NCBI GenBank assembly: GCA_937900255.1 | Contig: CALCDZ010000004.1 | Location: 20,857-84,856 of the forward strand | Reading direction: 5' to 3' | DNA from: an uncultured bacterium | Lineage (GTDB): Bacteria > Patescibacteriota > Patescibacteriia > SG8-24 > DYFX01 | Length of the DNA stretch: 64,000 nt | In this document: positions 2,068 through 64,000 of the stretch, piece after piece | Layout of the letters: every line of letters starts with the position of its first letter | Numbering within the stretch: the stretch's first letter is position 1 | The notes under the pieces: model-generated | The model's input: only the letters and a program-made list of their open reading frames with translations | Database searches by the model: none | What the model was told of the DNA's origin: nothing | Program-made: the position numbers and the translations under genes

Positions 2068-3111
2068 ATGAAGTTTCCGCCCATCTTTTCCGACCTTCCC
2101 AAACGCCCGTTGACGTTCGAGATCGCGGCAGGGGTCATTTTGGCGCTGCTGTTCTGGCGAGGATCATCCGAGGGACGCCTGCCGAAAGCGGTCGGGAACG
2201 GCACGTTCGACCGCTGGCGTGCCATCATCGTGATGCGCGCCGACGTAGTGTTCGACCCGCCCGCATCCTATTGGGTGGAGGGGCTGCTTTTGGGTGCCGA
2301 TCAGGGTTTTTCGTCGAAGTGGCGGGCGGATTTCCGGCGCACCGGGACCAGCCATCTGACCGCCGTGTCCGGCTACAACGTCGGCATGGTGCTCTCCGTC
2401 ACGCTGGCCGTGCTCGCATCGGCACCCTTCGGACGGCATGCGCGGGTAGGCATCGCCATGGGCTGCGTGGCGGCGTTCGTGCTGCTGACAGGCAGTCCCG
2501 GTTCGGTCCTTCGGGCCGCCGTGATGATCGGCGCGGTCGAAGCGGCGCGACTCTTCGGGCGCCCGATCAAACCGATCCGGGCGCTGCTCATCGCGGCGCT
2601 GTGCATCGGCGCCTGTTCGCCGCGAAGTCTGGCGCAGGACCGCGGCTTCCAGCTGTCCGTGCTGGCTTCCTTCGGCCTCGTCACGCTGGCGCCGCCGATG
2701 ACGGACTTCTTCCGGTTCCTGCCCAAGACGGTCGCGGCATGGGCCGGACAGACCTTGGCTGCCACGATCGCCACCGCGCCGCTCATCGCGCTCATGTCCG
2801 GCACGTATTCCTTGGTGGCCCTGCCCGCCAACATCGCCGTCGCGGCCTTCATCCCGGCGCTCATGGGCCTCGGCGCGCTCATCCTCGCCGCGAGCCTCGT
2901 TTCCTTGCCGCTGTCCTTGGCCGTAGCCGGTCTCGCCAAAGGCTTCTTCATGCTACCGTTGGTCCTGATCCGCGCCATGGCTTCTTGGCCAGCGGCAGCC
3001 GTGACCGGTCCGGAGGCGTTCGCCGTGCTGATCGGTGTCGAACTGGCGGCGCTCTTCTTCGTCCTCCGCTGGCGCCGCCGCGCGTCCGAACGCCTCGGTC
3101 TCCATGCGTGA
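2068..3111 (+). CDS. comEC: ComEC/Rec2-family competence membrane protein (membrane 'competence' domain only)
   Basis: Polytopic membrane protein carrying a ComEC-type motif (...TSHLTAVSGYNVGMV...). Ends with TGA overlapping the ATG of the next ORF (ATGCGTGA). Confidence 0.65.
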   Translation: MKFPPIFSDLPKRPLTFEIAAGVILALLFWRGSSEGRLPKAVGNGTFDRWRAIIVMRADVVFDPPASYWVEGLLLGADQGFSSKWRADFRRTGTSHLTAVSGYNVGMVLSVTLAVLASAPFGRHARVGIAMGCVAAFVLLTGSPGSVLRAAVMIGAVEAARLFGRPIKPIRALLIAALCIGACSPRSLAQDRGFQLSVLASFGLVTLAPPMTDFFRFLPKTVAAWAGQTLAATIATAPLIALMSGTYSLVALPANIAVAAFIPALMGLGALILAASLVSLPLSLAVAGLAKGFFMLPLVLIRAMASWPAAAVTGPEAFAVLIGVELAALFFVLRWRRRASERLGLHA

Positions 3112-3769
3112 ATCCTTCTTGAAACGGCATCGCGCCATTTTCGCCGCTTCGGCGGCCGTCTTGACGCTGGCCATCCTCCCGTTCGTCTCGGAAAGATGCG
3201 CGGCGTCGAAGTCCGACGTCCGCGTGCGGTTTTTCGCGCCCGCCCGGGGCGCCTCCGCGCTCATCTCCGGCCGCGATGGTCGTCGCATCCTGATCGACGC
3301 CGCGCCGGACGCGACTGCGCTCGAAGGATTGGCCGACGCCATGCCTTGGTGGAACCGGAAGATCGACGTCTTTCTGGTCGCCCGTCCCGATGCCGAGCAG
3401 GAGCCGGTCTTCCTTTCGATCGTCCGCCGCTATCACGTGAAGGAAATCTGGTGGACCGGGTATGCGCCGGTCGGCGAGCCATGGCGGCGCCTGGCCGCAG
3501 ATGTCCAGGCGTCGGGCATCCCGTCGCGCGCGGTCGGAGCGGGGGACCGTCTCGAGTTCTCCGGCGGTGCCCGTTTCGAGATCACTGCCCCCGACACCTT
3601 CGCCCCCGGGCGCCTCCTGAAGAAATCCGAAGCCGCCGATTCCGGCATCGCCGGGAAGTTCGTCTGCGGAACGGACGTCCTCGCGTTCGGTCCGTTCCTC
3701 GCGCGGAGACCTGACGCGCGTGCCGGGCGGGAATATGCCTGCTCAGGCGGGAAGCTGACGCAGCGGTAG
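3104..3769 (+). CDS. ComEC-associated metallo-beta-lactamase-like domain protein, catalytic motifs degenerate
   Basis: N-terminal TM helix, then a segment colinear with the ComEC lactamase domain (VRFFAPARGASALISGRDGRRILIDAAPD ... KIDVFLVARPDAEQEP). Canonical DVGQGD and HxHxDH positions are replaced by APARGA and ARPDAEQ. Separate frame from the upstream ComEC ORF. Confidence 0.5.
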   Translation: MRESFLKRHRAIFAASAAVLTLAILPFVSERCAASKSDVRVRFFAPARGASALISGRDGRRILIDAAPDATALEGLADAMPWWNRKIDVFLVARPDAEQEPVFLSIVRRYHVKEIWWTGYAPVGEPWRRLAADVQASGIPSRAVGAGDRLEFSGGARFEITAPDTFAPGRLLKKSEAADSGIAGKFVCGTDVLAFGPFLARRPDARAGREYACSGGKLTQR

Positions 3770-24400: not shown

Positions 24401-25267
24401 ATGTCTGACCTTTCGCCGCACCGTCCCGCCATCGTGCTGCCGAAAGGGGAGCGGGTCTCGATTCTGGTCCATGGGCTGCTGATCTTCGGGGGCGTGGGTG
24501 CCATGGCGCTTGGCGCGACTTCGAAGACGGCGTCGTTGGGCGGCGCTGTCCTATCGCAGGCCGTCTCCGTGCCATACCTGCTGGCAGCATTCTTGCTGAT
24601 CGTGTCCATACCGTCCTTGGCGCTGAAAGTGTCCAGGAATCCCGCCGTGTTCAGGGGCCTGTTCGCGCTCCTCATTTTCATGGGGTCCTGGTCCATCGCA
24701 GGCACGTATCTGCCGCCCGCCCCTGCGCTCCTCGTCGCGGCGGCCATCACGCTGCTTCATGCGTTTTGGAAAACGGCCATGGCCGCGAATGCGTCCCTCG
24801 CGATCGGCACGGCAGGCATCGCGGCAGGTATCGCGAAGGTTTTTTCTCCGGACGCCCTGCTGTTCCTTTTGACGGCGCTCTCTTTTTACGATATCTTGGC
24901 GGTCTATCGGACCGGACATATGGTCAGGATGTTCCGGGAACTGCGTTCTCTCGGCGCGGTCCTCGCCTTCCTGCTCACGCCGCTGCGTTTTTCGGATCTG
25001 ACGACACCCGCAGCTTCGAGGCCTGAACGTCCCGGCATGCTGCTCGGCGTCGGCGACGTGTTCATGCCGGTCGCGCTGGCCTGCGCCGCGCTCCGTCAAG
25101 GCTTCCTGCCGGCCGTCGCCGCGGTTTCCGGTGCCGCGGCGGGGTTCGCCGCGACGTATCTGCTGTATCTCGCCCAACCGAAACGCGCGCCGATGCCCGC
25201 GTTGCCGCCCATCGCCCTCGGAGCGATCATCGCCTACGCCGTCTCACTCCTCATCCAGCACCCATGA
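24401..25267 (+). CDS. polytopic membrane protein with presenilin/signal-peptide-peptidase-like GxGD aspartyl-protease motifs (A22-like)
   Basis: About 9 predicted TM helices. LSFYDILAVY (YD inside a TM), then ~55 aa later LGVGDVFMP (GxGD inside a TM), then PMPALPPIA (PAL motif) before the last TM. Order and spacing match presenilin/SPP/archaeal PSH. Confidence 0.55.
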   Translation: MSDLSPHRPAIVLPKGERVSILVHGLLIFGGVGAMALGATSKTASLGGAVLSQAVSVPYLLAAFLLIVSIPSLALKVSRNPAVFRGLFALLIFMGSWSIAGTYLPPAPALLVAAAITLLHAFWKTAMAANASLAIGTAGIAAGIAKVFSPDALLFLLTALSFYDILAVYRTGHMVRMFRELRSLGAVLAFLLTPLRFSDLTTPAASRPERPGMLLGVGDVFMPVALACAALRQGFLPAVAAVSGAAAGFAATYLLYLAQPKRAPMPALPPIALGAIIAYAVSLLIQHP

Positions 25268-28767: not shown

Positions 28768-30066
28768 ATGGAATACACCCTCGTCAAAGATATCGCCGCC
28801 AAGGCGGGCCAGGACGTCCTCTTGAAAGGCTGGTGCTACAACTTCCGCTCGTCCGGTTCGATCTTCTTCCTGCAGCTGCGCGACGGCTCCGGCCGCATCC
28901 AGGCCGTCGTCTCCAAGAAGGAGATCGGCGAAGACGCCTGGAACGCCTGCCAGTCGCTCTCGATCGAAGCGTCGGTCGAGGTCGAAGGCGCGGTGAAGGC
29001 CGAACCGCGTTCGGCCTCCGGTTTCGAGATCCAGGCCAGATCCGTGCGCGTCGTCGCCCTGCCGTCCCAGGAGTTCCCGATCGGCAAGAAGGAGCACGGC
29101 GTCGAGTTCCTGATGGACATGCGGCACCTCTGGCTGCGCAGCTCGCGCCAGGAGGCGATCCTGCGCGTCCGCGACGAGATCGAGTTCGCCATGCGCGAAT
29201 TCATGCGCGAGCGGGGATTCACCCTGACCGATTCGCCGATCTTCACGCCGAACGCCGCCGAGAGCACCTCGGAGCTGTTCGAAGTGAAATATTTCGACGA
29301 CAAGGCCTACCTCTCCCAGTCCGGACAGCTGTACCTTGAAGCCACTTCCAGCGCGCTCGGCAAGAGCTACTGCTTCGGTCCGACCTTCCGCTCCGAAAAA
29401 TCCAAGACGCGCCGCCACCTGACGGAGTTCTGGATGCTGGAGGCCGAAGCGTCCTTCATGGACTATGTCCAGAACATGCAGCTGCAGGAGGACCTGGTCG
29501 TCCATGTGGTGAAGAAAGTGCTGGCCAACCGCCGCGAGGACTTGAAGACGCTGGAGCGCGACGTCGCGCCGCTCGAACAGGTCGCGGAGGGCGGTTTCCC
29601 GCGCATCACTCACGCCGAAGCGGTCGCCAAGCTCCGCGAGCTCGGCAGCGACATCAAGGAAGGGGACGACCTCGGCGCCGACGACGAGACGCTCCTCACC
29701 CAGCAATACGACAAGCCGATCTTCGTCCACCACTATCCGGTCGAGATCAAGGCCTTCTACATGAAGCCAGACCCTCAGGACCCCAGCCGCGTCCTGAACG
29801 ACGACCTGCTCGCCCCCGAAGGCTATGGCGAGATCATCGGCGGTTCCCAGCGCATCGACGATCTGGCGCTGCTCGAACAGCGCATCAAGGATCACGGCCT
29901 GCCGATGGAAGCCTTCGAATGGTATCTCGACATCCGCCGCTACGGCTCCGTCCCGCACTCCGGCTTCGGCATCGGCCTCGAACGCACCGTCGCCTGGATC
30001 TGCAAGCTTCCGCACGTCCGCGAGACCATCCCGTTCGCGCGGCTGTTGAACAGGTTGAAGCCTTAG
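28768..30066 (+). CDS. asnS: asparaginyl-tRNA synthetase
   Basis: 432 aa class-II aaRS; FRSEKSKTRRHLTEFWMLEAE is the AsnRS motif-2 region; N-terminal OB anticodon-binding domain. Confidence 0.9.
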   Translation: MEYTLVKDIAAKAGQDVLLKGWCYNFRSSGSIFFLQLRDGSGRIQAVVSKKEIGEDAWNACQSLSIEASVEVEGAVKAEPRSASGFEIQARSVRVVALPSQEFPIGKKEHGVEFLMDMRHLWLRSSRQEAILRVRDEIEFAMREFMRERGFTLTDSPIFTPNAAESTSELFEVKYFDDKAYLSQSGQLYLEATSSALGKSYCFGPTFRSEKSKTRRHLTEFWMLEAEASFMDYVQNMQLQEDLVVHVVKKVLANRREDLKTLERDVAPLEQVAEGGFPRITHAEAVAKLRELGSDIKEGDDLGADDETLLTQQYDKPIFVHHYPVEIKAFYMKPDPQDPSRVLNDDLLAPEGYGEIIGGSQRIDDLALLEQRIKDHGLPMEAFEWYLDIRRYGSVPHSGFGIGLERTVAWICKLPHVRETIPFARLLNRLKP

Positions 30067-30932: not shown

Positions 30933-31748
30933 CTAGCCCAACCGGAATCCCCGCATCGAGATGCTGCCGTAGACGACGCCTTCGTTGAAGAACGAGGGCG
31001 TTTCGTCTTTTTCTTGGAGGCCGAGGGCGTAGAGCATCGGCCAGTAATGGTCGGGCGTGGGGATGGAGAGCTGGGCGGCGTGGCCGAGGTTCGCGTAGTC
31101 GATGAGGGCGTCGTGGTCGCCATCGGCGATGAGTTTGTGGGAGACGGCGTCGAACTCGGCGGCCCAATCGAACGGGCGGTCCGCGGAGGGGTCGATCATG
31201 CCGAGGTTGTGCACGATGTTGCCGCTGCCCATGATCAGCACGCCTTTGCGGCGCAGGGGAGCGAGCGCCCGCCCGAGGTCGTAGTGGAAGCGCGACGGCT
31301 TGGTATAGTCGAGGCTCAGCTGGAAGGTCGGGACGTCGGCGTCCGGGTAAAGGCGTTTCAACACCGACCAGGTGCCGTGGTCGAGGCCCCACTCGGTGTC
31401 GAGCCCGATCGGGAAACCTTCCGCCGCCCGACGTGCCTCTTCAGCCGCGGCCGGTGCGCCCGGACAGGGGTAGCGCTGGTCGTAGAGCTCCTGAGGGAAG
31501 CCGTAGAAATCGTGGATGGTGCGCGGTTCGGCCGAGACGTTGACCATCGTGCCTTTCACGAACCAGTGCGCGGAAATCGAAAGGACGGCGCGCGGCTTGG
31601 GCAGCTCCCGTCCGATTTCCGTCCACGTCCGCGAGAACGCGTTGTCCGTGATGGCATTCATCGGATCGCCATGCCCGACGAACAGGACCGGCATCCGTTC
31701 GGTGGCAGGGAACGCTCCGGCGGCCGACTGGAATTCCTTGATGGTCAT
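30933..31748 (-). CDS. ygiD: extradiol ring-cleavage dioxygenase, class III (LigB / 4,5-DOPA dioxygenase YgiD family)
   Basis: Colinear with E. coli YgiD: MPVLFVGHGDPMN, SAHWF, TIHDFYGFPQELY, SGNIVHNL, PTPDHYWPMLY. Start chosen at MTIKEF (272 aa). Confidence 0.8.
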   Translation of the reverse strand: MTIKEFQSAAGAFPATERMPVLFVGHGDPMNAITDNAFSRTWTEIGRELPKPRAVLSISAHWFVKGTMVNVSAEPRTIHDFYGFPQELYDQRYPCPGAPAAAEEARRAAEGFPIGLDTEWGLDHGTWSVLKRLYPDADVPTFQLSLDYTKPSRFHYDLGRALAPLRRKGVLIMGSGNIVHNLGMIDPSADRPFDWAAEFDAVSHKLIADGDHDALIDYANLGHAAQLSIPTPDHYWPMLYALGLQEKDETPSFFNEGVVYGSISMRGFRLG

Positions 31749-31872
31749 ATGAGAGCAGTATACCCGTATCCGACTTCGGTCAGAAGTACCTAAAAAATGG
31801 CTTATATAAGCTATTTTTATCGAATCCGTGGCGAGTTGAACATCCGGCAGCCGCATGTTAGAGTGCCTTCAT

Positions 31873-33282
31873 ATGGAATCCCAGAAACGTATTTTTGTTT
31901 TGGAAACGCTCCAGCATATCGGCGAGGAAGTCGTGCTCAAAGGGTGGGTGCATGTGCGCCGCAACATGGGCAAGATGATCTTCATCGAGCTGCGCGACCG
32001 CACCGGCATCATCCAGGTCGTCTTCCACCCGGGCAATCCGGACGCGCTCGCCGCGGCCGCCGATCTCCGTTCCGAATACGTCGTGGCTATCCGCGGCAAG
32101 GTCAACAAGCGGCCGGAGAAGCAGGTCATGGCCGAACAGCCGACGGGCACGGTCGAGTTCGAAGCGCTCGAACTGACGGTGCTGAACGCCGCCAAGACGC
32201 CCCCCTTCGAACTCACGGCCGATACGCGCGGCGTCGATGAGGAATTGCGGTTGAAGTACCGCTATCTCGACTTGCGGTCCGAACGCATGCGCAAGAACAT
32301 CGAGCTGCGTCACAAGGTCACCAAGTTCTTCCGCGATTTCCTGACGGAAAAGAATTTCTTCGAGATCGAGACGCCCATCCTGACCAAGGGCACGCCGGAA
32401 GGCTCGCGCGAATACCTGGTGCCGTCGCGCCTGCACGCCGGCAAGTTCTACGTGCTGCCGCAGTCGCCCCAGCAGTTCAAGCAGCTGCTCATGGTCGCCG
32501 GCATGGAGCGCTACTTCCAGGTGGCGCGCTGCTTCCGCGACGAGGACCAGCGCGGCGACCGCCAGCCGGAATTCACCCAGCTCGATATGGAGATGTCGTT
32601 CATCGAGGAAGAGGATATCATCTCGCTCATCGAGGAGATGCTCATCAAGCTGGTGGAGACCGTGTCGCCGGAGAAGAAGATCCTCCAGAAGCCCTTCCCG
32701 CGCCTGTCCTACAAGGAGGCGATGGAGAAGTACGGCAACGACAAGCCGGACCTGCGCGTCAACAAGGACGACCCGAACGAGCTGGCTTTCTGCTGGGTCG
32801 TCGATTTCCCGCTCTTCGAGAAATCCGAGTCCGAAGGCCGTCTCGTTTCCGCCCATCACCCTTTCACCGCCCCTCGCGACGAGCATAAGGCGATGCTCGA
32901 CACCGACCCGGCCAGCGTCATCGCCAAGGCGTATGACATTGTGCTGAACGGCTACGAGATCGGCGGCGGCTCCATCCGTATCCACGACCGCGAGACCCAG
33001 AAGAAGATCTTCCAGATCCTGGGCGCCACCGACGAGGAGATCCAGTCGCGCTTCGGCCACATGCTGGAAGCCTTCGAGTACGGCGCGCCTCCGCATGGCG
33101 GCTGCGCTCCGGGCATCGACCGCATCGTCATGCTCCTGGCGGGGGAACCGAACATCCGCGAGGTCATCACCTTCCCCAAGACCGGCGACGCGCGCGACCC
33201 GATGATGGGCGCTCCCGCCCCCATGCCGGAAGCCCAATTGCAGGAAGCGCACATCCTGGCCTTGGCCCCGAAAATGAAGTAA
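31873..33282 (+). CDS. aspS: aspartyl-tRNA synthetase, bacterial-type core without the GAD insertion domain
   Basis: N-terminal OB domain; [38 protein letters not shown]. Only ~470 aa versus ~590 for GAD-containing enzymes. Confidence 0.9.
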
Positions 33283-54336: not shown

Positions 54337-54966
54337 ATGCCCGCAACTCTCCCGACTCCCGCGTTGGAGGAACAAAAGACCGAGCCCGGAAACCAGGCAC
54401 CCGGGGCCGACCCCTCGTTTTTCGTCCGGCTCGGGCGTTTCGGGATGGAGATCGCCGAGATCGTCGTCATCTCGCTCGCCATCATCCTGCCGATCCGGTA
54501 CTTCCTGGTGCAGCCCTTTTATGTCAAAGGCGCCTCGATGGAGCCGACGTTCGATGACCGCGAGTACCTGATCATCGACGAATTGAGCTATCGCCTGCGC
54601 CACGCGGAACGTGGTGAAGTGGTCGTGTTCCGGTACCCGCTCGACCCCAGGCAGTTCTTCATCAAGCGCGTCATCGGTCTTCCCGGCGAGACGGTGAAGG
54701 TGTCGGGGCGGAAAGTCACCATCATCAACGCCGCGCACCCGGACGGCTTCATCCTGGACGAGACCGCGTATCTTTCTCCTGACGTCCCGACCGAAGGCGA
54801 ACGGACCATCAAGCTCAGTCACGACGAGTACTTCGTGATGGGCGATAACCGCACCGCCAGCCTGGATTCCCGCATCTTCGGGCCGCTCCCGGCCCAAGAC
54901 GTCGTCGGCCGGGTCTGGATCCGCGGATGGCCCATCGATCGAGCGACCGTTTTCCGAGCACCATAA
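54337..54966 (+). CDS. lepB: signal peptidase I
   Basis: S26 motifs GASMEPT (Ser nucleophile), KRVIGLPGE (Lys), GDNRTASLDSR; N-terminal TM anchor. Start may be at 54445 instead. Confidence 0.85.
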   Translation: MPATLPTPALEEQKTEPGNQAPGADPSFFVRLGRFGMEIAEIVVISLAIILPIRYFLVQPFYVKGASMEPTFDDREYLIIDELSYRLRHAERGEVVVFRYPLDPRQFFIKRVIGLPGETVKVSGRKVTIINAAHPDGFILDETAYLSPDVPTEGERTIKLSHDEYFVMGDNRTASLDSRIFGPLPAQDVVGRVWIRGWPIDRATVFRAP

Positions 54967-54987
54967 CCCAGCGCACTAAACGCCCGC

Positions 54988-56532
54988 ATGACCAAGATGA
55001 AAAAGACCCCGTCGGTCAAGGCGCCGGCTCCCGCCAAGGCCGGGACCGGAAGCAAGCCGGCCGCGGCGCCGTCGGCGCCCGGGACGGAGGAGATCCAGCA
55101 GAAGCCGAAACGCACCGCGCCCACGCCCCAGGCCCTGCGCGGCATGAAGGACATCTTGCCGGTGGACCAGAAGTATTGGATGCATGTCCGCGCGTGCGTG
55201 GAATCGATCGCCGGCACCTTCGGGTTCGAGCGCATCGATACGCCCATCCTTGAAGAGTCATCGCTGTTCGTCCGCGGTACCGGCAAGCACACCGATATCG
55301 TCGAGAAGGAGATGTTCTCGTTCGTCGACCAGGGCGGGGAATCCATGGCGCTTCGCCCCGAGTTCACGCCGTCGGTCACCCGCGCGTACATCAACCATGG
55401 CATGTGGAACCAGCCCCAGCCGATCAAATGGTTCACCTGGGGGCCGGTCTTCCGCCACGAGCGCCCTCAAGCCGGGCGTTTCCGCCAGTTCACCCAGTCC
55501 GGACTGGACGTCTTCGGCGACCGGCATCCGGTCATCGACGCCAACCTGATTTTCGCGGCGCACACCTTGTTCAAGGACCTCGGGATCGAAGCGCTGGTGC
55601 AGGTCAATTCGATCGGCGACCTCGCCTCGCGCGAAGCGTACAAGAACGAGCTCGTCTCGTACTATCGCAGCAAGCGTTCCCAGACGTGCGAGAACTGCAA
55701 GAAGCGCCTCCTCAAGAACCCGCTGCGCGTCCTCGATTGCAAGGAGGAAGGTTGCCAGGCCATCAAGGCCGAAGCGCCGCAGATCGTGGATTTCCTGAAC
55801 GAGGAATCCAAGAACCATTTCATCCGCGTGCTCGAATACCTGGACGAGCTGGAAGTGCCGTATCAGCTCCAGCCGCACTTGGTCCGCGGACTCGATTACT
55901 ACAGTCATACGGTGTTCGAGATCGTCGGCGCCGAAGAGGCGGACAAGTCGGGTTCGCAGGCGGTGCTCGCGGCGGGCGGCCGCTATGACGGCCTCATGGA
56001 GATCCTCGGCGGCAATCCGATACCGGCTGTCGGGTTCGCCTGGGGGATCGAGCGCATCATCCTTCGCCTCAAGGAAAAGTCCGTGCGTGTCCCGGACCTG
56101 CAGACCGCAGACGTCTTCGTCGCCCAGCTCGGCGAACCGGCCCGGCGCAAGACGCTCGCCCTGTTCAATGCCCTCAGGAAGGAGGGCGTGCGCGTGGGTG
56201 AAAGCTTCTCCCGCGATGCCCTCAAGCAGCAGCTGGAGATCGCCAACCGCCTCGGCGTGCGCTATACCGTCATCCTCGGCCAGAAGGAAGTCCTCGACGG
56301 GACCGCGCTCATCCGCGACATGGATTCGGGCATCCAGGAGATCGTCGACTTCAAGAAATGCGTCGCCGAACTCAAGCGCAAGCTGGCCATGCCGGCTCCG
56401 CCCAAGGCTCCTCCCGCGCCGGTTCCTCCGGAGCAGGAGGATCCGCTCCTGGCTGAAGAGCCGATGAAGGTCGACGAGGAGGAAGAAGAAACGGAAGGGG
56501 AGGACGGTGAATCGAAGAAACGGAAGAAGTAG
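54988..56532 (+). CDS. hisS: histidyl-tRNA synthetase with N- and C-terminal low-complexity extensions
   Basis: Class-II motifs (ALRGMKDILP..., FRHERPQAGRFRQF, GGRYDGL). N-terminal ~40 aa Lys/Ala/Pro-rich; C-terminal EEEETEGEDGESKKRKK. Confidence 0.9.
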   Translation: MTKMKKTPSVKAPAPAKAGTGSKPAAAPSAPGTEEIQQKPKRTAPTPQALRGMKDILPVDQKYWMHVRACVESIAGTFGFERIDTPILEESSLFVRGTGKHTDIVEKEMFSFVDQGGESMALRPEFTPSVTRAYINHGMWNQPQPIKWFTWGPVFRHERPQAGRFRQFTQSGLDVFGDRHPVIDANLIFAAHTLFKDLGIEALVQVNSIGDLASREAYKNELVSYYRSKRSQTCENCKKRLLKNPLRVLDCKEEGCQAIKAEAPQIVDFLNEESKNHFIRVLEYLDELEVPYQLQPHLVRGLDYYSHTVFEIVGAEEADKSGSQAVLAAGGRYDGLMEILGGNPIPAVGFAWGIERIILRLKEKSVRVPDLQTADVFVAQLGEPARRKTLALFNALRKEGVRVGESFSRDALKQQLEIANRLGVRYTVILGQKEVLDGTALIRDMDSGIQEIVDFKKCVAELKRKLAMPAPPKAPPAPVPPEQEDPLLAEEPMKVDEEEEETEGEDGESKKRKK

Positions 56533-56533
56533 G

Positions 56534-56562
56534 AAAAGCCCGCCTGTACAGGCGGGCTTTTC
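56534..56562 (+). terminator. rho-independent terminator after hisS
   Basis: AAAA-GCCCGCC-tgtaca-GGCGGGC-TTTTCC. Confidence 0.65.
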
Positions 56563-56577
56563 CGCGCTATCCTCGAC

Positions 56578-58086
56578 ATGACTATGCCTATCGAAGGACG
56601 GGAACGGTCCGGAACGTTCGTCGCGGACGCCGCGGCGGCGTGCATCGCCATCATCCTCGGCTTGATCGCCGAATATCTTTTCCATGGGAAGCCGATCGGG
56701 GCCTCTTTCCCGGCATTCGCGGTCCTGTGCGCCGCCGGGCTGGTTCTCGCCCTGCGCTTGCGCGGGAGGTCCCTTCCGCGCTCCGCGTGGATCGTCATGC
56801 TTCCGCTCGTCGGCTTTTCCGGGATGCTCGCTTTCCGTGCGAACCCGGCGCTCGCCTGCATCAACGTCGCATGCAGTTTCGGTTCGTTCCTCCTTCTCGT
56901 CTCGGTGGCGTCCGGGCGGAAGGTCCGCGACTACGACCTCTCTGGCTATGCGAAGCTCGTTGCCCGTTCGATCGCCTTCATCCCGTCCGGCGTCCGGACG
57001 GCGGTCGGCCTTTGGGGCTACGGCACCCGCGATGCCAAGAGGGGGCGTGTACGTCAATTCTTGAAAGGGGCGTTGATCGCCCTTCCGTTCCTGCTCGCGT
57101 TCGGCGCCCTGTTCGCGTCGGCGGACCTGGCGTTCGACAAGTTCTTCCGGAATCTCCTTTCGGGTTTCTCCTTCCTCCGGTTCCAGGATGCGGTCTTTTG
57201 GGTCTTCATCGCGGCCGCTTTCCTTCTCGGGGCGTACGTGGCGGCAGGCAAGACGCACGAAGATCCTTCAGGCGCGGAAGCCGTACCCGAATCCGGATCC
57301 GACCACGTCCTTTCGATTTCGACGTCGCTTGCGCTCGTGAATGCCTTGTTCCTGGCGTTCATAGTCTTCCAGGTCGAGTATCTCTTCGGCGGCGCCGGGA
57401 ACGTCGGGCGGCTGGGGCTCACCTATGCGACCTATGCGCGGCGCGGTTTCTTCGAGCTTCTGGCCGTGACGGGGCTGTCGTTCCTGATGCTGCTCGGTTT
57501 CGAACGCCTCCTTTCCGGAAAGGGGGGCGGGCATGCGAAGGCCTTCAAGGCGCTTTCCTCGGTGCACGTCCTCCTCGTCGGCGCGGTCATCGCTTCGGCG
57601 CATCAACGTCTCGTCCTTTACGAGGACGCGTACGGTTTCACGACGCCCAGGTTCTTCGCGCACGCGTTCGTCTTCCTTCTTGGGGCCATGTTCCTCGTGC
57701 TCGCCGCCAAGATCGTCCTGGATCGCGATGGCCGTTGGTCGGCGTTCCGGCTGCTTGCCGCCGCCGCCGTCTTCTGCGCGTGCCTGGACGTCATCAATCC
57801 CGACGCCTTCGTGGCGGCCAGGAACCTGGAACGTTATCGGCAGACGGGAAAGATCGACGCGACCTATCTCGCCGGCCTTTCTTCGGACGCCATCCCGACG
57901 GCCATCGTGCTGCTCGATGTGAAGGATCCCGACGTCGCCGTGCGCTACGCGGAAGGCCTGCGCCGCAATCCGTACGTCCGGGCCCTTTCCGCGCGCCCCT
58001 GGTACGCCTTCGATTTCTCCGATGCCGCCGCCGCGTCCCTTCTGCGCGCCCGCGCGTCCGATGCCGCCTCCCCGAAAGGATATTGA
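56578..58086 (+). CDS. large multi-pass membrane protein of unknown function (possibly DUF4173-like)
   Basis: 502 aa, about 10 hydrophobic helices; no catalytic motif recognised. Confidence 0.4.
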   Translation: MTMPIEGRERSGTFVADAAAACIAIILGLIAEYLFHGKPIGASFPAFAVLCAAGLVLALRLRGRSLPRSAWIVMLPLVGFSGMLAFRANPALACINVACSFGSFLLLVSVASGRKVRDYDLSGYAKLVARSIAFIPSGVRTAVGLWGYGTRDAKRGRVRQFLKGALIALPFLLAFGALFASADLAFDKFFRNLLSGFSFLRFQDAVFWVFIAAAFLLGAYVAAGKTHEDPSGAEAVPESGSDHVLSISTSLALVNALFLAFIVFQVEYLFGGAGNVGRLGLTYATYARRGFFELLAVTGLSFLMLLGFERLLSGKGGGHAKAFKALSSVHVLLVGAVIASAHQRLVLYEDAYGFTTPRFFAHAFVFLLGAMFLVLAAKIVLDRDGRWSAFRLLAAAAVFCACLDVINPDAFVAARNLERYRQTGKIDATYLAGLSSDAIPTAIVLLDVKDPDVAVRYAEGLRRNPYVRALSARPWYAFDFSDAAAASLLRARASDAASPKGY

Positions 58087-58166
58087 CCTTAAAGACGCCC
58101 CCTGGTATCCTCTTCTTGAGACCCACTCGTCTCTCAATTTTTAGTGGAAAGGAAGGTGTATCGTTT

Positions 58167-58418
58167 GTGGTTGAAGTCAAACGCAAAAAAGGAGAAAGTT
58201 TCGAAGCCCTGCTTCGCCGTTTCAGCCGCCGCATCCAACAGAGCGGCCGGGTTCTTCAGGCCAAGAAAGTCCGCTTTCATCATCCTGAAAAGAACAAGAA
58301 CGCCCAACGCGATGCCGCGCTCCGACGCCAGTTTCTCAGCGCGCGCCGCGAATATCTGCTCAAGAGCGGCAAGCTGAAGGAAGAGGAGTTCGGCGCCCGC
58401 AAGAGCCATCGCGGCTAA
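58167..58418 (+). CDS. rpsU: 30S ribosomal protein S21
   Basis: GTG start preceded by GGAAAGGAAGG; VEVKRKKGESFEALLRRFSRR...RREYLLKSGK matches the S21 signature. It is in a different frame from the 58144 track ORF. Confidence 0.75.
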   Translation: MVEVKRKKGESFEALLRRFSRRIQQSGRVLQAKKVRFHHPEKNKNAQRDAALRRQFLSARREYLLKSGKLKEEEFGARKSHRG

Positions 58419-58465
58419 GCCCCGCCCCGGCGCCAGCCGGAGCCTCGCCTAGAACATTCGTCCGT

Positions 58466-58918
58466 ATGCCCCTCAGAAACGAGATCGAAACGCGCTTCGT
58501 GCAGGCGATGAAGGCGAAGGACGCCGCCTCGCTCTCCGTCTTCCGGATGCTGCGTTCGGCGCTCAAGAACGCCGAAATCGACAAGCAGGTCAAGGAGCTG
58601 GATGACGACCAGACGCTGGAAGTCATCGCACGGGAGGTCAAGAAGCTCAAGGACGCCATGACGGACTTCGAGAAAGCCGGGCGCCAAGACCTTCTTGCAC
58701 AGGCGTCGTCCGAAGTCGCCTTGCTCGCCCAGTTCCTGCCCGCTCAGCTCTCCGAAGCGGATGTCTCGGCCGCCGTGGCCAAGAAGGCCTCCGAACTCGG
58801 CCTCTCCGGCGAAGCGGCCTACGGCCGGCTGATGGGGGAGGTCATGAAGGACCTGAAAGGAAAGACGGACGGAGCCGCAGTCGGCAAGGCCGTCAAAGCG
58901 TTCCTGCAAAATACGTAG
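58466..58918 (+). CDS. yqeY: GatB/YqeY domain protein
   Basis: 150 aa; MPLRNEIETRFVQAMKAKDAASLSVFRMLRSALKNAEID... YqeY family; conserved rpsU-yqeY adjacency. Confidence 0.75.
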   Translation: MPLRNEIETRFVQAMKAKDAASLSVFRMLRSALKNAEIDKQVKELDDDQTLEVIAREVKKLKDAMTDFEKAGRQDLLAQASSEVALLAQFLPAQLSEADVSAAVAKKASELGLSGEAAYGRLMGEVMKDLKGKTDGAAVGKAVKAFLQNT

Positions 58919-58949: not shown

Positions 58950-60728
58950 ATGCTTACAGGAAGGAAGCCATGCTCCAGACCGCTCGCAAGAGCCGCCTTC
59001 ACGGCCGCCTGTTTCGTGTTGGCGGTTTTTGCGTCTCTGGGAGCGGCGCATGCGGCGCATGCCCAGGGCGTGACGTCCAACGAAGTGCTGCCGACCGAAG
59101 TCGGTGCGGCCATTGGCACGGGCAGCGGCGATATCCGCATCACGATCGCGCGTATCGTCCGCGCCGCGCTCGGTCTCTTGGGGACCGTCGCCCTGCTGCT
59201 CGTCCTGTATGCCGGCTTCCTCTGGATGACGGCTTCGGGGGATGAGGACAAGATCGCGCGGGCGAAGAATACGCTCGCCGGCGCGCTCGTCGGGCTGGCG
59301 ATCATCCTGTCGGCGTTCGGCATCACGTCGCTCATCATCAGCCGCCTGCTCGGCGCAAGCGAAGGCGGGGGACCGGGCACGATCGGAGGGTCCGGTGCCA
59401 TCGATTCCGCCTGCATCGGCCTGTCCGCGACTTGCTCGGCCGGCGCGCTCGGCAACGGCATCGTCGAAAGCCATTACCCGTCCCGTAACGCGACCGGCGT
59501 CCCGCGCAATACCCGTATCGCCGTCACTTTCAAGGAGAAGATCGACCCCGCTTCTTTGGTGGTCGGAGGCGCCACGTCCACCGTCGCCATCCTGAAATCT
59601 TCCCAGGTCTCCGGTACCGACAACCGCTTCCTTCAGAAGTTCAGCCAGGCGCTGACGCCCGCCGCCATCGCAGTCGCCCCGTCCGCCGACGGCAGGACGT
59701 TCGTCTTCATGCAGAAGAACTGCCCGTCGGACTGTTTCGGAAGCCCGTCGGAAAACGTCTTCTATACCGTGGCGCTGCGGGGAGGTTCCGATGGCATCAA
59801 GAAAGCCGACGGCAGTCCCGCCTTCGGAGGGACGTTCAGTTCCGGGTATCTTTGGGAGTTCCAGGTCTCGACCAAGATCGATACGACCCCTCCGCACGTC
59901 AGCGCCGTCGTGCCTGCGTCCGGGGAGACGGGCGTGGCGCGCAACTCGATGGTGCAAGTCGATTTCGACGAGGCGATCGATCCGGTCAGCGCTGCGGCGG
60001 GCCTTTCGGTCGCGCGTTCGGGCGGCGTCGCCGTCCAGGGCGATGCGCGGATCGGGAACGCCTATCGTACGCTCGAATTCCGCACCAACGACCTTTGCGG
60101 CACCAACTCCTGCGGCGAGAAGGTCTACTGCCTGCCGGGGAACCAGTCGATCGCCGTCAGGGTCAAGGCGGACGGCCTGACCGCGACGCCGCCTCTCGGA
60201 CTGTATCCGCCGAGCGGCGTGACCGACATGGCCGGCAACTCGCTTGACGGCAACGGCAACGGCGCCGCGCAGGGCAGCCCGTCGGATGACTATCCGTTCT
60301 CGTTCACGACAGGCGACAAGATCGACCTGGTCCCGCCGAAAGTCGTCTCCCAGGACCCGGGCATCCTTCAGGGCGACGTCCCTCGCGACCTCCCGATGTC
60401 CGCCACCTTTTCCAAGCTGATGAGCGCGACCAGCATCACGACCGATACGATGCGCCTCATGGCGGTCCCCGGAGCCCCGACCAACTACGCGGTGACCAGC
60501 CAACCGGTCTCCTCGGTCACGGGCGGGGAACCCGACCAGACGAAAGCCGTGTTCCAGCACGATCTCCTCAGTACCGATCAGGCGTATGCGGCCGACCTGA
60601 CGTCCGGATTGCGCGACCTGCACCAGAACTGCTTCTTCCCGGGCGGAGGGCAGACCGTCTGCACCGGCAGCGAACCGTATTGCTGCAACGGCCAGCCTTC
60701 GACGACCGCCTGCGGCTTCCTTCCCTAG
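58950..60728 (+). CDS. secreted/membrane-anchored large protein: signal peptide, VirB2/T4SS-pilin-like two-helix domain, Ig-like region, Cys-rich C-terminus
   Basis: Signal peptide ending AHAAHA|QG. Two hydrophobic helices in pilin-like arrangement (IVRAALGLLGTVALLLVLYAGFLWMTASGDEDKIARAKNTLAGALVGLAIILSAF). Ig-like ectodomain; terminal QNCFFPGGGQTVCTGSEPYCCNGQPSTTACGFLP. Confidence 0.6.
   Translation: MLTGRKPCSRPLARAAFTAACFVLAVFASLGAAHAAHAQGVTSNEVLPTEVGAAIGTGSGDIRITIARIVRAALGLLGTVALLLVLYAGFLWMTASGDEDKIARAKNTLAGALVGLAIILSAFGITSLIISRLLGASEGGGPGTIGGSGAIDSACIGLSATCSAGALGNGIVESHYPSRNATGVPRNTRIAVTFKEKIDPASLVVGGATSTVAILKSSQVSGTDNRFLQKFSQALTPAAIAVAPSADGRTFVFMQKNCPSDCFGSPSENVFYTVALRGGSDGIKKADGSPAFGGTFSSGYLWEFQVSTKIDTTPPHVSAVVPASGETGVARNSMVQVDFDEAIDPVSAAAGLSVARSGGVAVQGDARIGNAYRTLEFRTNDLCGTNSCGEKVYCLPGNQSIAVRVKADGLTATPPLGLYPPSGVTDMAGNSLDGNGNGAAQGSPSDDYPFSFTTGDKIDLVPPKVVSQDPGILQGDVPRDLPMSATFSKLMSATSITTDTMRLMAVPGAPTNYAVTSQPVSSVTGGEPDQTKAVFQHDLLSTDQAYAADLTSGLRDLHQNCFFPGGGQTVCTGSEPYCCNGQPSTTACGFLP
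59064..59336 (+). repeat. direct repeat copy 1 (~270 bp, ~90% identical to copy 2; 78-bp identical core at 59186-59263)
   Basis: DNA encoding the pilin-like N-terminal domain. The core ACCGTCGCCCTGCTGCTCGTCCTGTATGCCGGCTTCCTCTGGATGACGGCTTCGGGGGATGAGGACAAGATCGCGCG recurs verbatim at 60947-61024. Confidence 0.8.
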
Positions 60729-60730
60729 AC

Positions 60731-63700
60731 TATGATGCCGTCCTTCCGCCGACATCGCGCATGGATCATCGGGCTGGCGCTCTTCGCGTCCTGCTTCTGG
60801 TTCCTGGCGGCGCACGGCGTCCATGCTCAAGGCGTGACGTCCAACGAACTGCTCCCGACATCGGTCGGCACGGCGATCGGTACCGGAACGACCGATATCC
60901 GCATCACGATCGCGCGTGTCATCCGCGTGGCGCTCGGCCTTCTCGGGACCGTCGCCCTGCTGCTCGTCCTGTATGCCGGCTTCCTCTGGATGACGGCTTC
61001 GGGGGATGAGGACAAGATCGCGCGCGCCAAGAAGACGCTCACCGGGGCGGTCATCGGGCTCGCGATCATCCTGTCGGCGTTCGCCATCACCCAGTTCGTG
61101 CTGAATGCGCTCGTATCCGCCACGACCCAGGGCGAAGTCACGGGCCCGGGCGGTGGCGGCGGGGGAGGAGGCCTCGGTGGCGGCGGAAACGGCGGGGCTT
61201 TCCGGCCGACCGGCATCCAGCCGAAGGGTTCGTTGCGCAAATACGACGTGGTCGCGTCCGTGACGTTCAATGCCGCTCCGACCGGGGATGCGGCCAACAT
61301 CAAGGCGAATGTCCTGCTCGAGAAGGTCGCCGGCGGCGCGCGGACGCCGGTCGATTACGATCCGATCGTCCAGAACGATACGATCCGCCTCCAACCCGTC
61401 CAGGCCTGCCCTCCTCCGAACGGAGGCAAGCGTTGCCTTGAACCGAACCAGGAATACCAGGTCACGGTCCGGGCCGGTCTCAAGAACGCCTCATCTTCCG
61501 ACCCACGCACCGTCAATTGCGGCATCGGCGCGAACTGCACGCAGGCGTTCAAGACGGGTTCGGTCGTCGGCACCGGATCCCCGACGGTCTCGATCGCTTC
61601 TCCTCTCGATGGCGCGTCCGTCCCGGCCGGAGACCTGATCGCGCTGCAATCGATTTCCACCGATCAGGATGGCATCGCCACCGTCGAATATTCGGCCGAC
61701 GGCGCCTTTTTCGCTTCCGACGGCGCCGCGCAGCGCGTGGCGGCTTCCACGTATTCAAGCCAAGTCTTTTGGGATGACGCCGCTTTCGTTCCGGTCAAGA
61801 GAGTCACGCTCACGGCGCGCGCGACCAATATCGACGGGGACTCGGCGGATTCGGCGCCCGTACATGTGACCGTACGCCCTGCCGCCTGTTTCGATCACGT
61901 GAAGGACGGCGACGAGGTCGGCGTCGATTGCGGCGGCTCTTGCGGCGCCTGCACGGGTGCGGCCTGCACGTCGGACGCCAGCTGCAGTTCCGGCCAGTGC
62001 CGGAACGGGGTATGCGTGGAGAACCCGCAGATCACGGACGTGCAGTTGCGCGACGGGAAACCCGGTAATCTCGTGACGATCACGGGGCTTCATTTCGGAT
62101 CGCAGCCGGGCACGGTCACTTTCCTCGGGGCGTCGGCGGCAGGGGATGAGAAGTCGGCCCCCCTGGCCTCGTGCGGCGGCGCGTGGTCCGATACGCGTGT
62201 CGTCATCGCCGTCCCGTCCGGTGCCGTCACCGGACCGATCCAGGTAGCGGTCGCCGGCGGAGCGAAGAAGGACGCAACGAACGACGCGTTTGGACCGATC
62301 ATCGCCGATTTCCAAGTCAATGACACGGCGCGTCCCGGCATCTGTTCCGTCGCGCCGGCAAGCGTGAAGACGGGGCTGCCCATGACCGTGACCGGCCTCG
62401 CGTTCGGCGCGGCGCAAGGCGATTCCCGCATCCAGCTCGCGCGCGCAGCTTCCGACTGCAGCCAGATCCAGGATTGGTCCAGTGCGGCAGAAGTCCCGCA
62501 GGTCCCGTCATGGTCCGACACCTCCGTGCGTCCGGTCATGCCGAACGTGGATACGGGTTCGGACGGGGCGCAGTACCTGATGCGCGTGACGGTCGGCGGC
62601 CAGCCCTCGAACGTCGCCTGCGTGCGCGCCGAACCGCCGTCGGCCGGCACGGAACCGCATATCGATCTCATCACTCCGGATTCGGGGTCCGTCGGGACGT
62701 ACGTTTCGCTGCTCGGTTCGAATTTCGGCACGGGCGGCACCGTCCGTTTCAGGAACGCGGCAGGCGAGGCGATCGGGGACGTCAGTTTCCCCGCCCAGTG
62801 CGCGGCCGGCTATTGGACCGATTCCAGCGTGACCGTCAAGGTTCCCGCCAAGTTCACGACGCCGGCCGATACGCCCGTCGCGTTGAATCCGCCGTACGAC
62901 GTGACGGTCGTGCGTTCCGATGGCCGCAGTTCCAACGCGCGCCCGTTCGTCATCGACACCGCTCCCGTGCCTCCCGGCATCTGCCGCATCGACCCAGACA
63001 ACGGCCCGGCCGGAAGCGCCGTCACGCTGTATGGAGAGAATTTCGGCGACATCGCGGCGAACGACCTGCCCTCCTTCTCCGCACTGCATCCTGACGCGGT
63101 CAGTTTTCATGACCATAAGCCTGCCTCGTCGATCGGCCAATGGGGATCTTCCGGCATCAAGGCCGTCGTCCCTGACGGCGCGTTGACCGGGCCCGCCGTC
63201 ATCAAGACCTATTCCGGAAGCGCCGCTTTGGCTTCGAACGGCATCAATTTCCGCGTCAGCGATTGCCGCCAAGCGGGCGGAGACGCGGCGTGCGGAAACG
63301 GACGCGCTTGCTGCGGGGACGGGTCTTGCCGCGCCTCGTGCGGCGGCTCGTCGGCGATCGGCGGATACGCCTGGAAGTTCTCGACCGGACCGATTCCCGT
63401 CTTCCCCGTCGTGATCGAGAACGCGACGTGCCAAGTCTCGGCTCCGACTTCGATGCCGAGCCCTAACCCGTTCAAATCGGCGCAGGACGTCTGCACCGAC
63501 ATTGGCGCGATCGCGGTGCGCTTCAGCCTGCCGATGGATCCCGCGACGTTCCACAGCGGCAACGTCGTGCTGGAATCTTGCGGCACCGGGACGTCCGTTT
63601 CCGGGACGTGCACGACCGTGGCCGGCGTCGGCACGCCATCGGCCGTCCCATACGACCCGGAAGGGCGTACCGAGCTCAAGCTCCCGATCGGGGGCTTGCA

Positions 63701-64000
63701 GCCCGGCACGTGGTATCGGCTGACGCTGAAGGATCGCATCCTGAGTCTCGGATCGCCTGATCGCGCGGCGCAGCCGCTCGATGGGAACTCCGACGGCAAG
63801 GCCGGAGGTGCCTACGTCACGACTTTCAAGACCGGCAGCGCGCCCTGCGCGCTCTCCGGCGTGCACGTCGATCCGGCCAGCGGCCTCATTTCCGCCGCCG
63901 ATGCGCAGGAGGCGTACGCGGCGTTCCCGCTCTCGAACCGTTGCATCATCCTCTCTTGCGCCGGGCGTTCCGTCTCCTGGTCCTCTTCCGACACGTCGAA
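60731..64000 (+). CDS. paralogous giant surface protein (>1089 aa, 3' end beyond window): signal peptide, pilin-like domain, Gly-rich linker, Cys-rich modules, at least three IPT/TIG-like domains
   Basis: Frame-2 ORF from ATG 60731, 2 nt after the upstream stop, has no stop codon up to 64000 and is not in the ORF track because it is unterminated. N-terminal ~100 aa nearly identical to the upstream gene. IPT/TIG-like starts at ITDVQLRDGKPGNLVTITGLHFG, IDLITPDSGSVGTYVSLLGSNFG, ICRIDPDNGPAGSAVTLYGENFG. Cys-rich modules CGGSCGACTGAACTSDASCSSGQCRNGVCV and DCRQAGGDAACGNGRACCGDGSCRASCGG. Confidence 0.6.
60828..61090 (+). repeat. direct repeat copy 2
   Basis: See copy 1; spacing ~1.76 kb. Confidence 0.8.

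Follow-up and report, generated by a model that had tools for sequence, protein, structure and literature searches.

A 64,000-nt stretch of DNA from an uncultured bacterium (contig CALCDZ010000004.1, positions 20,857 to 84,856 of the forward strand; hereafter the window) ends with two consecutive genes, whose products P1 and P2 share an N-terminal module resembling the VirB2-like pilins of type IV secretion systems (T4SS). Gene 1 (58950–60728) is an open reading frame (ORF) for P1, a protein of 592 aa with a signal peptide, a VirB2-like pilin head, a Gly-rich linker, a Big_5 ectodomain and a Cys-rich C-terminus. Gene 2 (60732–64000) is a frame that stays open to the end of the window, which contains the first 1,089 of its 3,185 codons; about 6.3 kb more of the gene lies past the window end. 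Both genes and all of their features are on the plus strand, and their extents agree with the first-pass annotation, which was made from the letters of the window. The gap between them is 3 nt instead of the 2 nt counted there, as the stop codon of P1 is followed by ACT and then by the ATG of P2 at 60732 (TAG ACT ATG). The genes do abut, and the co-translation that had been proposed is suggested by this arrangement taken by itself. The G+C content of the window is 63%, with a strong third-position GC in real genes. A scan for promoters and terminators on the 20-kb contig described below gave counts at chance level and no operon boundaries.

The rest of gene 2 was found on an ENA contig of 20.5 kb, which was retrieved with the exact P1 sequence and is identical to the window over the 6,062 nt that they share. 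On this contig (2794–12351 of L001/L002) P2 is an intact ORF of 3,185 aa, and the stop just beyond the window that had been considered as a possible sign of a pseudogene does not occur. P1, P2 and other window genes are also present on an NCBI contig of 275,627 bp. When the two proteins were compared by BLASTP, their N-termini showed 73% identity over 120 aa (E 1e-48), and beyond the N-terminal module no significant similarity was observed between P1 and the window part of P2. Because only this single N-terminal segment was found, the paralogy of P1 and P2 is confined to the heads. The earlier description of tandem paralogues with near-identical N-terminal modules therefore holds for the heads but not for the rest of the proteins, and the string quoted in support of it (LGTVALLLVLYAGFLWMTASGDEDKIARAK...LAIILSAF) is found in both.

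The heads of P1 and P2 have the same construction. P1 starts with a predicted signal peptide (58950–59063, aa 1–38; site AHA|QG), followed by the pilin-like head (59064–59357, aa 39–136), in which helices 62–93 and 99–136 are joined by a short charged turn. P2 starts with a predicted signal peptide (60732–60827, aa 1–32; site VHA|QG), followed by the head (60828–61124, aa 33–131) with helices 56–88 and 93–135, a turn at 89–92 and the motif YAGFLWMTASGDEDKIARAKK. The two peptides and their putative cleavage sites were read from the sequence. Hydropathy locates a hydrophobic segment at aa 11–38 of P1 and aa 9–30 of P2, and the AlphaFold models have a helix at aa 11–31 and aa 6–26, respectively. 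The hydropathy scan and AlphaFold also agree that a hairpin of two helices with a turn of 4–5 residues follows the signal peptide in both proteins (pLDDT 87–93 for the P2 hairpin), so the earlier prediction of a signal peptide with an AxA site and two helices around a short polar loop was right in its architecture, the site itself being a reading by eye.

The Pfam check that the first-pass annotation had proposed was run, and PF18895 (T4SS_pilin) matched P1 with 36.2 bits (aa 65–129) and P2 with 35.2 bits (aa 60–123), both above the gathering score of 26.6. Against a hidden Markov model (HMM) of 118 stand-alone short pilins, the heads scored 126–128 bits (P1) and 149 bits (P2). The stand-alone VirB2-like pilins of Patescibacteria that align end to end with the heads are 110–160 aa long, and in an alignment with 73 of them (A1) aa 1–135 of P2 corresponds one-to-one with the short pilins, from the signal peptide to the 'ATxG' end. 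The family-invariant residues G72, G83, T88, G91 and G109 are kept in the P2 head, and the pilin motif YAGFLWMTAgGnEEKv.KAK is kept in the heads. Judged from these alignments, each head is a complete VirB2/TrbC-type pilin. The NCBIfam model NF045849 (Mbov_0395 pilin-like conjugal transfer protein of a mycoplasma integrative and conjugative element) gave 33.3 and 33.2 bits, which is below its 40-bit cutoff; by sequence the heads are related to this family but not equivalog members of it. PF04956 (TrbC/VirB2) had no match to P1 or P2 at E≤1. It matched 27 of the 75 aligned family members (best E 7e-08), which ties the head family to bona fide conjugative pilins. Members of PF18895 are about 100–230 aa long and end soon after helix 2, a size that neither P1 (592 aa) nor P2 (3,185 aa) shares. 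Identity with the pilins of type IV pili was rejected, as both proteins lack the G|F(T/S)LxE prepilin peptidase site of class III signal peptides and a PF07963 match.

Homologues of the P2 head (aa 1–134) are mainly short proteins. The best 120 of 180 are 83–230 aa long and carry PF18895, and where named almost all come from Magasanik-, Uhr-, Falkow- or Paceibacteria, with two non-Patescibacteria labels. This search under-samples long proteins: it missed P2 itself, although P2 is the representative of its own cluster (P0123) and contains the query exactly. Similarly, the cluster representative of P1 is a 47-aa fragment, which hides P1 in the word-index search. Because of this, the head search was not used to argue that fusions are rare, and an exhaustive HMMER scan and a locus analysis were used. 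The closest short relatives of the heads occur in arrays of 6–11 consecutive PF18895 genes (L083 6769–14911; L084 9015–11613). Some members in these two loci are 200–330 aa long, the neighbours are sugar-nucleotide and solute-binding genes, and no T4SS genes lie within 10 kb of the two arrays examined.

The ectodomain of P1 (59442–60725, aa 165–592) is a tandem of Ig-like beta-sandwiches with 12 Cys, which are all the Cys of the mature chain, and with the C-terminal motif QNCF..C..CC..C. Pfam confirmed the Ig-like region noted in the first pass, with three Big_5 stretches (85.6 bits). An AlphaFold model built with the family alignment (pLDDT 83.7, pTM 0.72) shows the hairpin, a disordered Gly-rich linker (138–163) and then a rigid beta-sandwich array with pLDDT mostly >90. 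Foldseek against the PDB matched this model to the bacterial Ig (BIg) domains of mycobacterial L,D-transpeptidases and to the S-layer proteins SbsC and Sap (E ~1e-9), and no catalytic fold was found for P1 in this search. When 51 orthologues were aligned, 23 columns were invariant over the whole length of P1, including the C-terminal Cys cluster.

P2 continues from its head into a long chain of small domains. The poly-Gly linker that had been noted (61143–61199, aa 138–156) is present as read from the sequence. It is followed by a Big_7 Ig-like domain (61581–61730, aa 284–333; PF17957, 34.8 bits), a region of four IPT/TIG domains flanked by short Cys-rich modules (62025–63257, about aa 432–842; PF01833, 56.4 bits) and a Big_5 Ig-like domain (63459–63740, aa 910–1003; PF13205, 30.5 bits in the window part and 47.3 in the full-length protein). 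The outer boundaries of the TIG region were set by eye, and the best PF01833 stretch is 432–509. Four TIG stretches were found in the scan of the window part and three in the full-length scan, in line with the at least three expected. Searches of PDB sequences with the head profile, P1 and P2 returned only spurious designed-repeat matches or a weak match of P2 to the IPT/TIG protein 8co1 (E 3.5e-4). Past the window, the repeat model TIGR02232 ('myxo_disulf_rpt') matches the full-length P2 seven times (50.5 bits versus a cutoff of 20.8), each time at aa ≥1364. The pattern CGNG..E.CD has nine matches in P2, DUF4215 alone gives 20.1 bits (threshold 27), and 168 Cys follow the signal peptide. The models for PSI, EGF and Sema had no match at E≤1 in either the window part or the full-length P2. 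The Cys-rich modules first described as EGF/PSI-like are therefore not recognised as such, the repeats of the full-length protein being myxo-type Cys-rich acidic repeats (DUF4215/TIGR02232), and the plexin/MET-like layout proposed for P2 is not supported. Neither P1 nor P2 has an LPXTG motif or a C-terminal hydrophobic segment, and sortase anchoring was rejected on these grounds.

Conservation along P2 is uneven. In 24 complete orthologues, which are collinear with P2 over aa 1–2800 (occupancy mostly 0.8–1.0), conservation is highest in the head (mean identity to P2 0.58), and the last ~350 aa are poorly conserved (occupancy 0.2–0.6). The extra domains of P2 relatives occur in the distal quarter: a VWA domain in P0411 (2823–2990 of 3,107), a Malectin domain in P0406 (2506–2675 of 2,858), and a Laminin-G-type lectin domain (2198–2336) and a Malectin domain (2733–2899) in P0408 (3,191 aa). 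Because the extra domains fall in this quarter and the last ~350 aa are variable, P2 appears to combine an anchor and stalk that are conserved with a far end that can be exchanged. In P2 itself, the C-terminal ~170 aa (aa ~3015–3185; L002 11836–12348; IRVTWKNPPDVKDIDTHV...IYYSNKG...WDDTG...) have no Pfam match and are poorly conserved in orthologues. The VWA, malectin or lectin modules of relatives occupy the equivalent position, and this sequence is a candidate for a new binding domain.

The P1 family was collected by an exhaustive HMMER scan against 1.84 billion representatives, which gave 22,965 matches at 1e-3, 5,094 at 1e-10 and 723 at 1e-30. Most of the best 150 relatives are 540–700 aa long and align from about residue 15 to the end. 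Since these are mostly full-length and collinear, P1 belongs to a large family whose members are built in the same way. With the full-length P2 as the query, 167 proteins matched at E≤1e-20. The best 120 of these are 1,865–4,744 aa long, nearly all combine PF18895 with Big_5 and TIG, and where an organism is given it is a member of the Patescibacteria, except for one Methylomirabilis- and one Candidatus Eisenbacteria-labelled record. Their public names are 'DUF4215', 'cysteine-rich repeat', 'IPT/TIG', 'Ig-like', 'Multiple EGF-like-domain' or none/hypothetical. The domain combination has been caught by automatic annotation, in the JGI name 'type IV secretion system pilin/Big-like domain-containing protein'.

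To define the related loci, the 51-member alignment was searched against one genome per GTDB species, and the best 80 loci of at least 287 confirmed stretches were analysed, with pilin heads located by an HMM built from short pilins. In 73 of the 80 loci, a second pilin-headed ORF comes directly after the pilin-headed gene for ~600 aa and on its strand, the alignment of the second head beginning 34 nt (median) past the stop codon of P1. Five of the seven remaining loci are on contigs that end ≤300 nt from P1. The long relatives recovered by the P1- and P2-family searches and these 80 loci support the earlier remark that heads of this kind stand at the front of huge surface proteins in the candidate phyla radiation (CPR). 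By size, the complete second genes form classes of 1,550–1,880, ~2,400 and 3,058–3,453 aa, and there are two shorter complete ORFs of 388 and 936 aa. The 1,550–1,880-aa form has its own cluster (L011, L013, L018, L034, L040, L041 and others) and often precedes another protein of ~870–1,130 aa (L034, L041), which also occurs after differently clustered second genes (L033, L046, L047, L066); the giant may have been split or fused during evolution.

By record title, the cassette-bearing loci with a lineage name belong to the Patescibacteria, apart from the labels discussed next, and the assignment of the organism to CPR/Patescibacteria, made without knowledge of its origin, was borne out. About three dozen of the 80 cassette-bearing third-party metagenome-assembled genome records (L003, L009, L012, L013 and others) are labelled 'uncultured Gammaproteobacteria' and one 'uncultured bacterium'. 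The Gammaproteobacteria labels were read as wrong because the gene content and the nearest relatives are those of Patescibacteria.

When each head was compared with those outside its own genome, the nearest neighbour of a first-gene (A-type) head was another A head in 62–65 of 73 cases, and that of a second-gene (B-type) head was another B head in 62–68 of 73. These comparisons indicate that A-type and B-type heads are separate orthologous lineages and that the pair is vertically inherited in Patescibacteria. A heads, B heads and short pilins share ~40% mutual identity (medians 38–42%) and one common consensus. Over the whole dataset, the two heads of one genome have a median identity of 45%, and heads of different genomes one of 41%. 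In the clade of the window (window heads 58950–59357 versus 60732–61124; L003–L006), the two heads of one genome are 58–73% identical, about the level of orthologues, a hint of co-evolution or gene conversion.

The neighbourhood of the pair is made of housekeeping genes. The block directly upstream (54337–58918, plus strand), identified from Pfam matches and gene calls on L002, consists of lepB for signal peptidase I (54337–54966), hisS (54988–56532), a gene for a DUF4153 membrane protein (56578–58086), rpsU (about 58167–58418) and yqeY (58466–58918), and is conserved apart from the DUF4153 gene, which is absent from the clusters conserved in related loci. The annotated window genes around the pair all have housekeeping functions: signal peptidase I, HisRS, the DUF4153 membrane protein, S21, YqeY and Der, and further a LytR-family protein, topoisomerase I, RelA/SpoT, ParAB and aminoacyl-tRNA synthetases. 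Downstream, P2 is followed by three small proteins with overlapping stops and starts, each with one N-terminal transmembrane segment and bacterial thrombospondin-type-3 (TSP3) repeats, and then on the P2 contig by ybeY, dgkA, ftsA, ftsZ, nrdR and htrA. Membrane-anchored TSP3-repeat proteins also follow the pair in related loci, where the recurrent order is lepB-hisS-rpsU-yqeY-P1-P2, 1–3 TSP3 proteins and ybeY-dgkA-ftsA-ftsZ, with pth-der-lytR upstream on the opposite strand. Outside the 20 window ORFs between 24 and 58 kb that were scanned with Pfam, no window ORF has the size of VirB4 except that of a presumed EF-G, which was assigned by position and not scanned.

Several other features were observed in the window and in related loci. 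A membrane protease of the presenilin/signal-peptide-peptidase family, unusual in bacteria, is encoded at 24401–25264 (PF06550, 42.3 bits versus 23.9). The first-pass annotation had proposed P1 and P2 as its clients. The gene is real, but it lies 34 kb away and outside the neighbourhood conserved in the 80 loci, and the proposal was not retained. Between 30001 and 32000 the G+C content dips to 52.6% (about 63% elsewhere) around a LigB-family dioxygenase-like gene (30936–31856, minus strand), which is flanked by genes for class II (D/K/N-type) aminoacyl-tRNA synthetases (28768–30063 and 31855–33279); this stretch may have been inserted from a foreign source. A reverse transcriptase of ~330 aa (RVT_1) is encoded a few genes upstream of the cassette in 5 of the 80 related loci, and three of these five have classic repeat pairs of diversity-generating retroelements, with 13–21 mismatches that are nearly all at adenines of one copy (L044 5867–6000/6359–6492; L048 6969–7098/7594–7723; L069 5058–5195/5553–5690). 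Diversification of P1 or P2 by these retroelements was rejected because the variable repeat is in a separate upstream gene.

The reading that we favour, with a confidence only somewhat above even, is that P1 and P2 are surface proteins anchored by a pilin hairpin, that P2 forms a long fibre whose contact tip varies, and that the pair acts in host or substrate contact or adhesion. The pair is probably a core cell-surface contact apparatus. From sequence and models we infer the cleavage sites, the membrane orientation, the disulfides, the length of the fibre and its adhesive function. Sec would insert the precursor, and signal peptidase I, whose gene is located four genes upstream in a conserved position, would cut after AHA in P1 or VHA in P2. 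The mature hairpin would then lie in the cytoplasmic membrane with its N-terminus outside, the short K/R-rich turn inside and its C-terminus outside. VirB2/TraA-type pilins have both termini outside and the inter-helix loop at the cytoplasmic face. Because of this topology and the signal peptidase I cleavage, the ectodomains are expected outside the cell, and everything beyond the Gly-rich linker would be an extracellular stalk of 450 residues in P1 and 3,050 in P2. The even Cys counts (12 and 168), which would allow all Cys to pair as disulfides, and the many Ca-binding repeats agree with such a location. P2 would be a long fibre made of Ig-like domains, TIG domains and Cys-rich acidic repeats that bind Ca, with a length on the order of 100 nm at ~3.5–4 nm per 100-residue domain; its membrane-proximal 2,800 residues are conserved, and the lineage-variable distal tip would be the contact or binding module. 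P1 would be the short invariant partner of P2 with 3–4 Ig domains, and the membrane proteins with TSP3 repeats, whose genes come directly after P2, are probably accessory components that bind Ca. The head may do more than anchor the proteins, and its conservation speaks for this most strongly: no other part of P2 is as constrained, and the pilin motif persists across the group.

A number of observations weigh against a role in contact or adhesion, or against the tie of the heads to a secretion pilus. The support for the function of P1 and P2 is computational, no expression data were found, and the signal-peptide cleavage and membrane orientation were judged by eye. Collinear conservation and a single copy are unusual for host-specific adhesins and would be just as expected of a structural part of the envelope. 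The genes conserved around the pair serve housekeeping and division rather than host interaction. No known binding domain matches the C-terminal ~170 aa of P2, and fold searches with the head hairpin gave only generic helical hairpins. Furthermore, no T4SS components were found by Pfam among the 20 window ORFs between 24 and 58 kb, no T4SS genes in the 8 kb downstream of P2, and no recurrent T4SS families within ±10 kb of the cassette in the 80 related loci.

Three other explanations were weighed with this evidence. That P2 is a pseudogene or misassembly and the shared head a recent functionless local duplication could not be judged from the window alone, which shows no P2 stop codon. It was rejected and can be regarded as practically dismissed, as P2 is intact at 3,185 aa in both the independent ENA assembly identical to the window and the 275-kb NCBI contig, both genes have orthologues in dozens of species, and the A-type and B-type heads form separate lineages. 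A structural role in the envelope is harder to set aside. The hairpin would then be a mere anchor, and P1, P2 and the TSP3 proteins would form a Ca-stabilised layer or lattice for integrity or division, not for host contact. The fixed position between rpsU-yqeY and ybeY-dgkA-ftsA-ftsZ in many species would fit such a scaffold, although the order next to ftsAZ may merely reflect the strongly conserved gene order of small genomes. The single-copy, collinear and vertically inherited pair, the abundance of acidic Ca-binding-type repeats (TSP3, TIGR02232) and the best structural matches of P1, which include the S-layer proteins SbsC and Sap and the cell-wall-associated BIg domains of L,D-transpeptidases, point in the same direction. 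However, the end of P2 varies and bears VWA, malectin or lectin modules in relatives, as is usual for a tip that binds ligands and not for a lattice protein, and a single bead chain of 3,000 residues would be unusual as an S-layer subunit. An envelope scaffold is considered improbable, while deserving attention.

The heads may instead co-polymerise with short VirB2-like pilins encoded elsewhere in the genome, so that P1 and P2 would be minor or tip subunits of a pilus with projecting ectodomains. The heads resemble the short pilins as much as the short pilins resemble each other and have the same consensus, the conservation of the head within a 3,185-aa protein is above what a generic anchor should require, and the 58–73% identity of the two heads per genome in this clade would fit co-evolving, interacting parts. 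A C-terminal extension would also be geometrically possible, because the termini of VirB2-type pilins face the filament exterior in the structures of F-type and T-type pili. A helical filament with tightly packed subunits could tolerate an appendage of 3,000 residues only at low stoichiometry or at an end, however, and VirB4, VirB6 and VirD4 genes are missing near the cassette, here and in the 80 related loci, as are T4SS genes around both examined short-pilin arrays. The fold searches with the head are uninformative on this point. Integration would be favoured by the essential VirB2-like pilin arrays reported in Patescibacteria, in work that found no adhesin (PMC12102498, PMC12857230), and disfavoured by the fact that a Patescibacterial VirB2 pilus has never yet been seen (PMC12857230). 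Integration of P1 and P2 into a pilus is thus unlikely on balance, though it has more than one line of evidence behind it. A more specific form of it appears rather doubtful, namely a composite T4SS-type filament with a shaft of short pilins, into which the heads would insert P1 as a short Ig-like subunit and P2 as a ~100-nm adhesin with a swappable tip. With pilin-hairpin-anchored surface proteins as the preferred reading, the head may dock into a short-pilin filament or be recognised by the same insertion and extraction machinery.

The pilins to which the heads are related have been surveyed in this phylum. Quinonero-Coronel et al. 2025 (PMC12102498) searched 3,035 Patescibacteria genomes with PF18895 and PF04956 and reported VirB2-like pilins in 1,948 assemblies, with arrays of 2–11 pilin genes and no adhesins detected. 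The pilins of the described arrays are short, highly divergent (mean 25% identity) and often near virB4. A pilin array of Ca. Southlakia epibionticum was described by Wang et al. 2023, as reviewed in PMC12857230, and both papers describe VirB2-like pilins as widespread and as essential in one cultivated Patescibacterium (PMC12102498, PMC12857230). The 2025 T4SS review calls a pilus in these monoderms 'intriguing' and unproven, none having been seen (PMC12857230). Fusions or giant pilin members are not mentioned in the available text of PMC12102498 or PMC12857230. No prior description of pilin-headed giant proteins or of the cassette was found in the literature searched, which left most subscription journals outside. 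As far as found, the pair is a previously undescribed, conserved two-gene surface apparatus of Parcubacteria-side Patescibacteria, built on a conjugative-pilin hairpin.

These results are wider than a local gene oddity, as the two-gene cassette recurs within a constant set of housekeeping genes and has no T4SS genes around it. A large part of bacterial diversity belongs to the Patescibacteria, which live attached to other microbes, and to our knowledge almost nothing is known of their contact mechanisms outside Saccharibacteria. Because one pilin module of the pair heads a short Ig-like protein and the other a giant, variably tipped fibre, and because the pair is present in dozens of species-level genomes, it is a concrete candidate for a contact apparatus of Parcubacteria-side lineages. 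It also indicates that a conjugative-pilin hairpin can be the N-terminal module of very large surface proteins, which bears on how this fold is inserted into and extracted from the membrane. If the composite filament were true, it would represent the first natural fusion of a VirB2-type pilin to an ectodomain. It would also provide these epibionts with their 'missing adhesin', and uncultivated bacteria of the Uhrbacteria and Magasanikbacteria types would have a host-contact organelle common to the lineage.

Compared with known systems, P1 and P2 are closest to the Patescibacterial VirB2-like pilins. They share with them the signal peptide, the two hydrophobic helices, the short charged turn, the motif YAGFLWMTAgG..ekv.kAK and an HMM score above threshold, and both occur as tandem pilin-type genes in the same phylum. 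The known members are 100–230 aa long and end right after helix 2, whereas P1 and P2 continue for 450 and 3,050 residues; in contrast to the arrays, they come as an invariable pair, whose A and B members each have orthologues in the related loci, and T4SS genes are lacking around them. By sequence, the heads thus belong to the pilin family, but they lack the small size and the T4SS linkage of its described members. The Pam pilus system of CPR (bioRxiv 10.64898/2026.03.03.709456) was set aside as a different system, which uses donor-strand-exchange Ig pilins. P2 resembles plexin/MET (Sema-PSI-IPT) in its several IPT/TIG domains among small Cys-rich modules, but in domain type only, given that the Sema, PSI and EGF models do not match it. 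Myxococcus-type TIGR02232/DUF4215 proteins have the same repeats, and relatives of P2 are annotated as 'DUF4215 domain-containing' or 'cysteine-rich repeat protein'; however, the repeat covers about a fifth of P2, has no assigned function and says nothing on the head or the cassette. Giant bead-on-string adhesins of the RTX and LPXTG types show the same overall plan as P2, with a long Ig-like chain, Ca-binding repeats, a variable distal module and an anchor at one end. They differ in that anchor, which in P1 and P2 would be an N-terminal pilin hairpin in the cytoplasmic membrane instead of an LPXTG signal or a type 1 secretion retention module, and, unlike these adhesins, P2 is single-copy and collinearly conserved across a class-level group.

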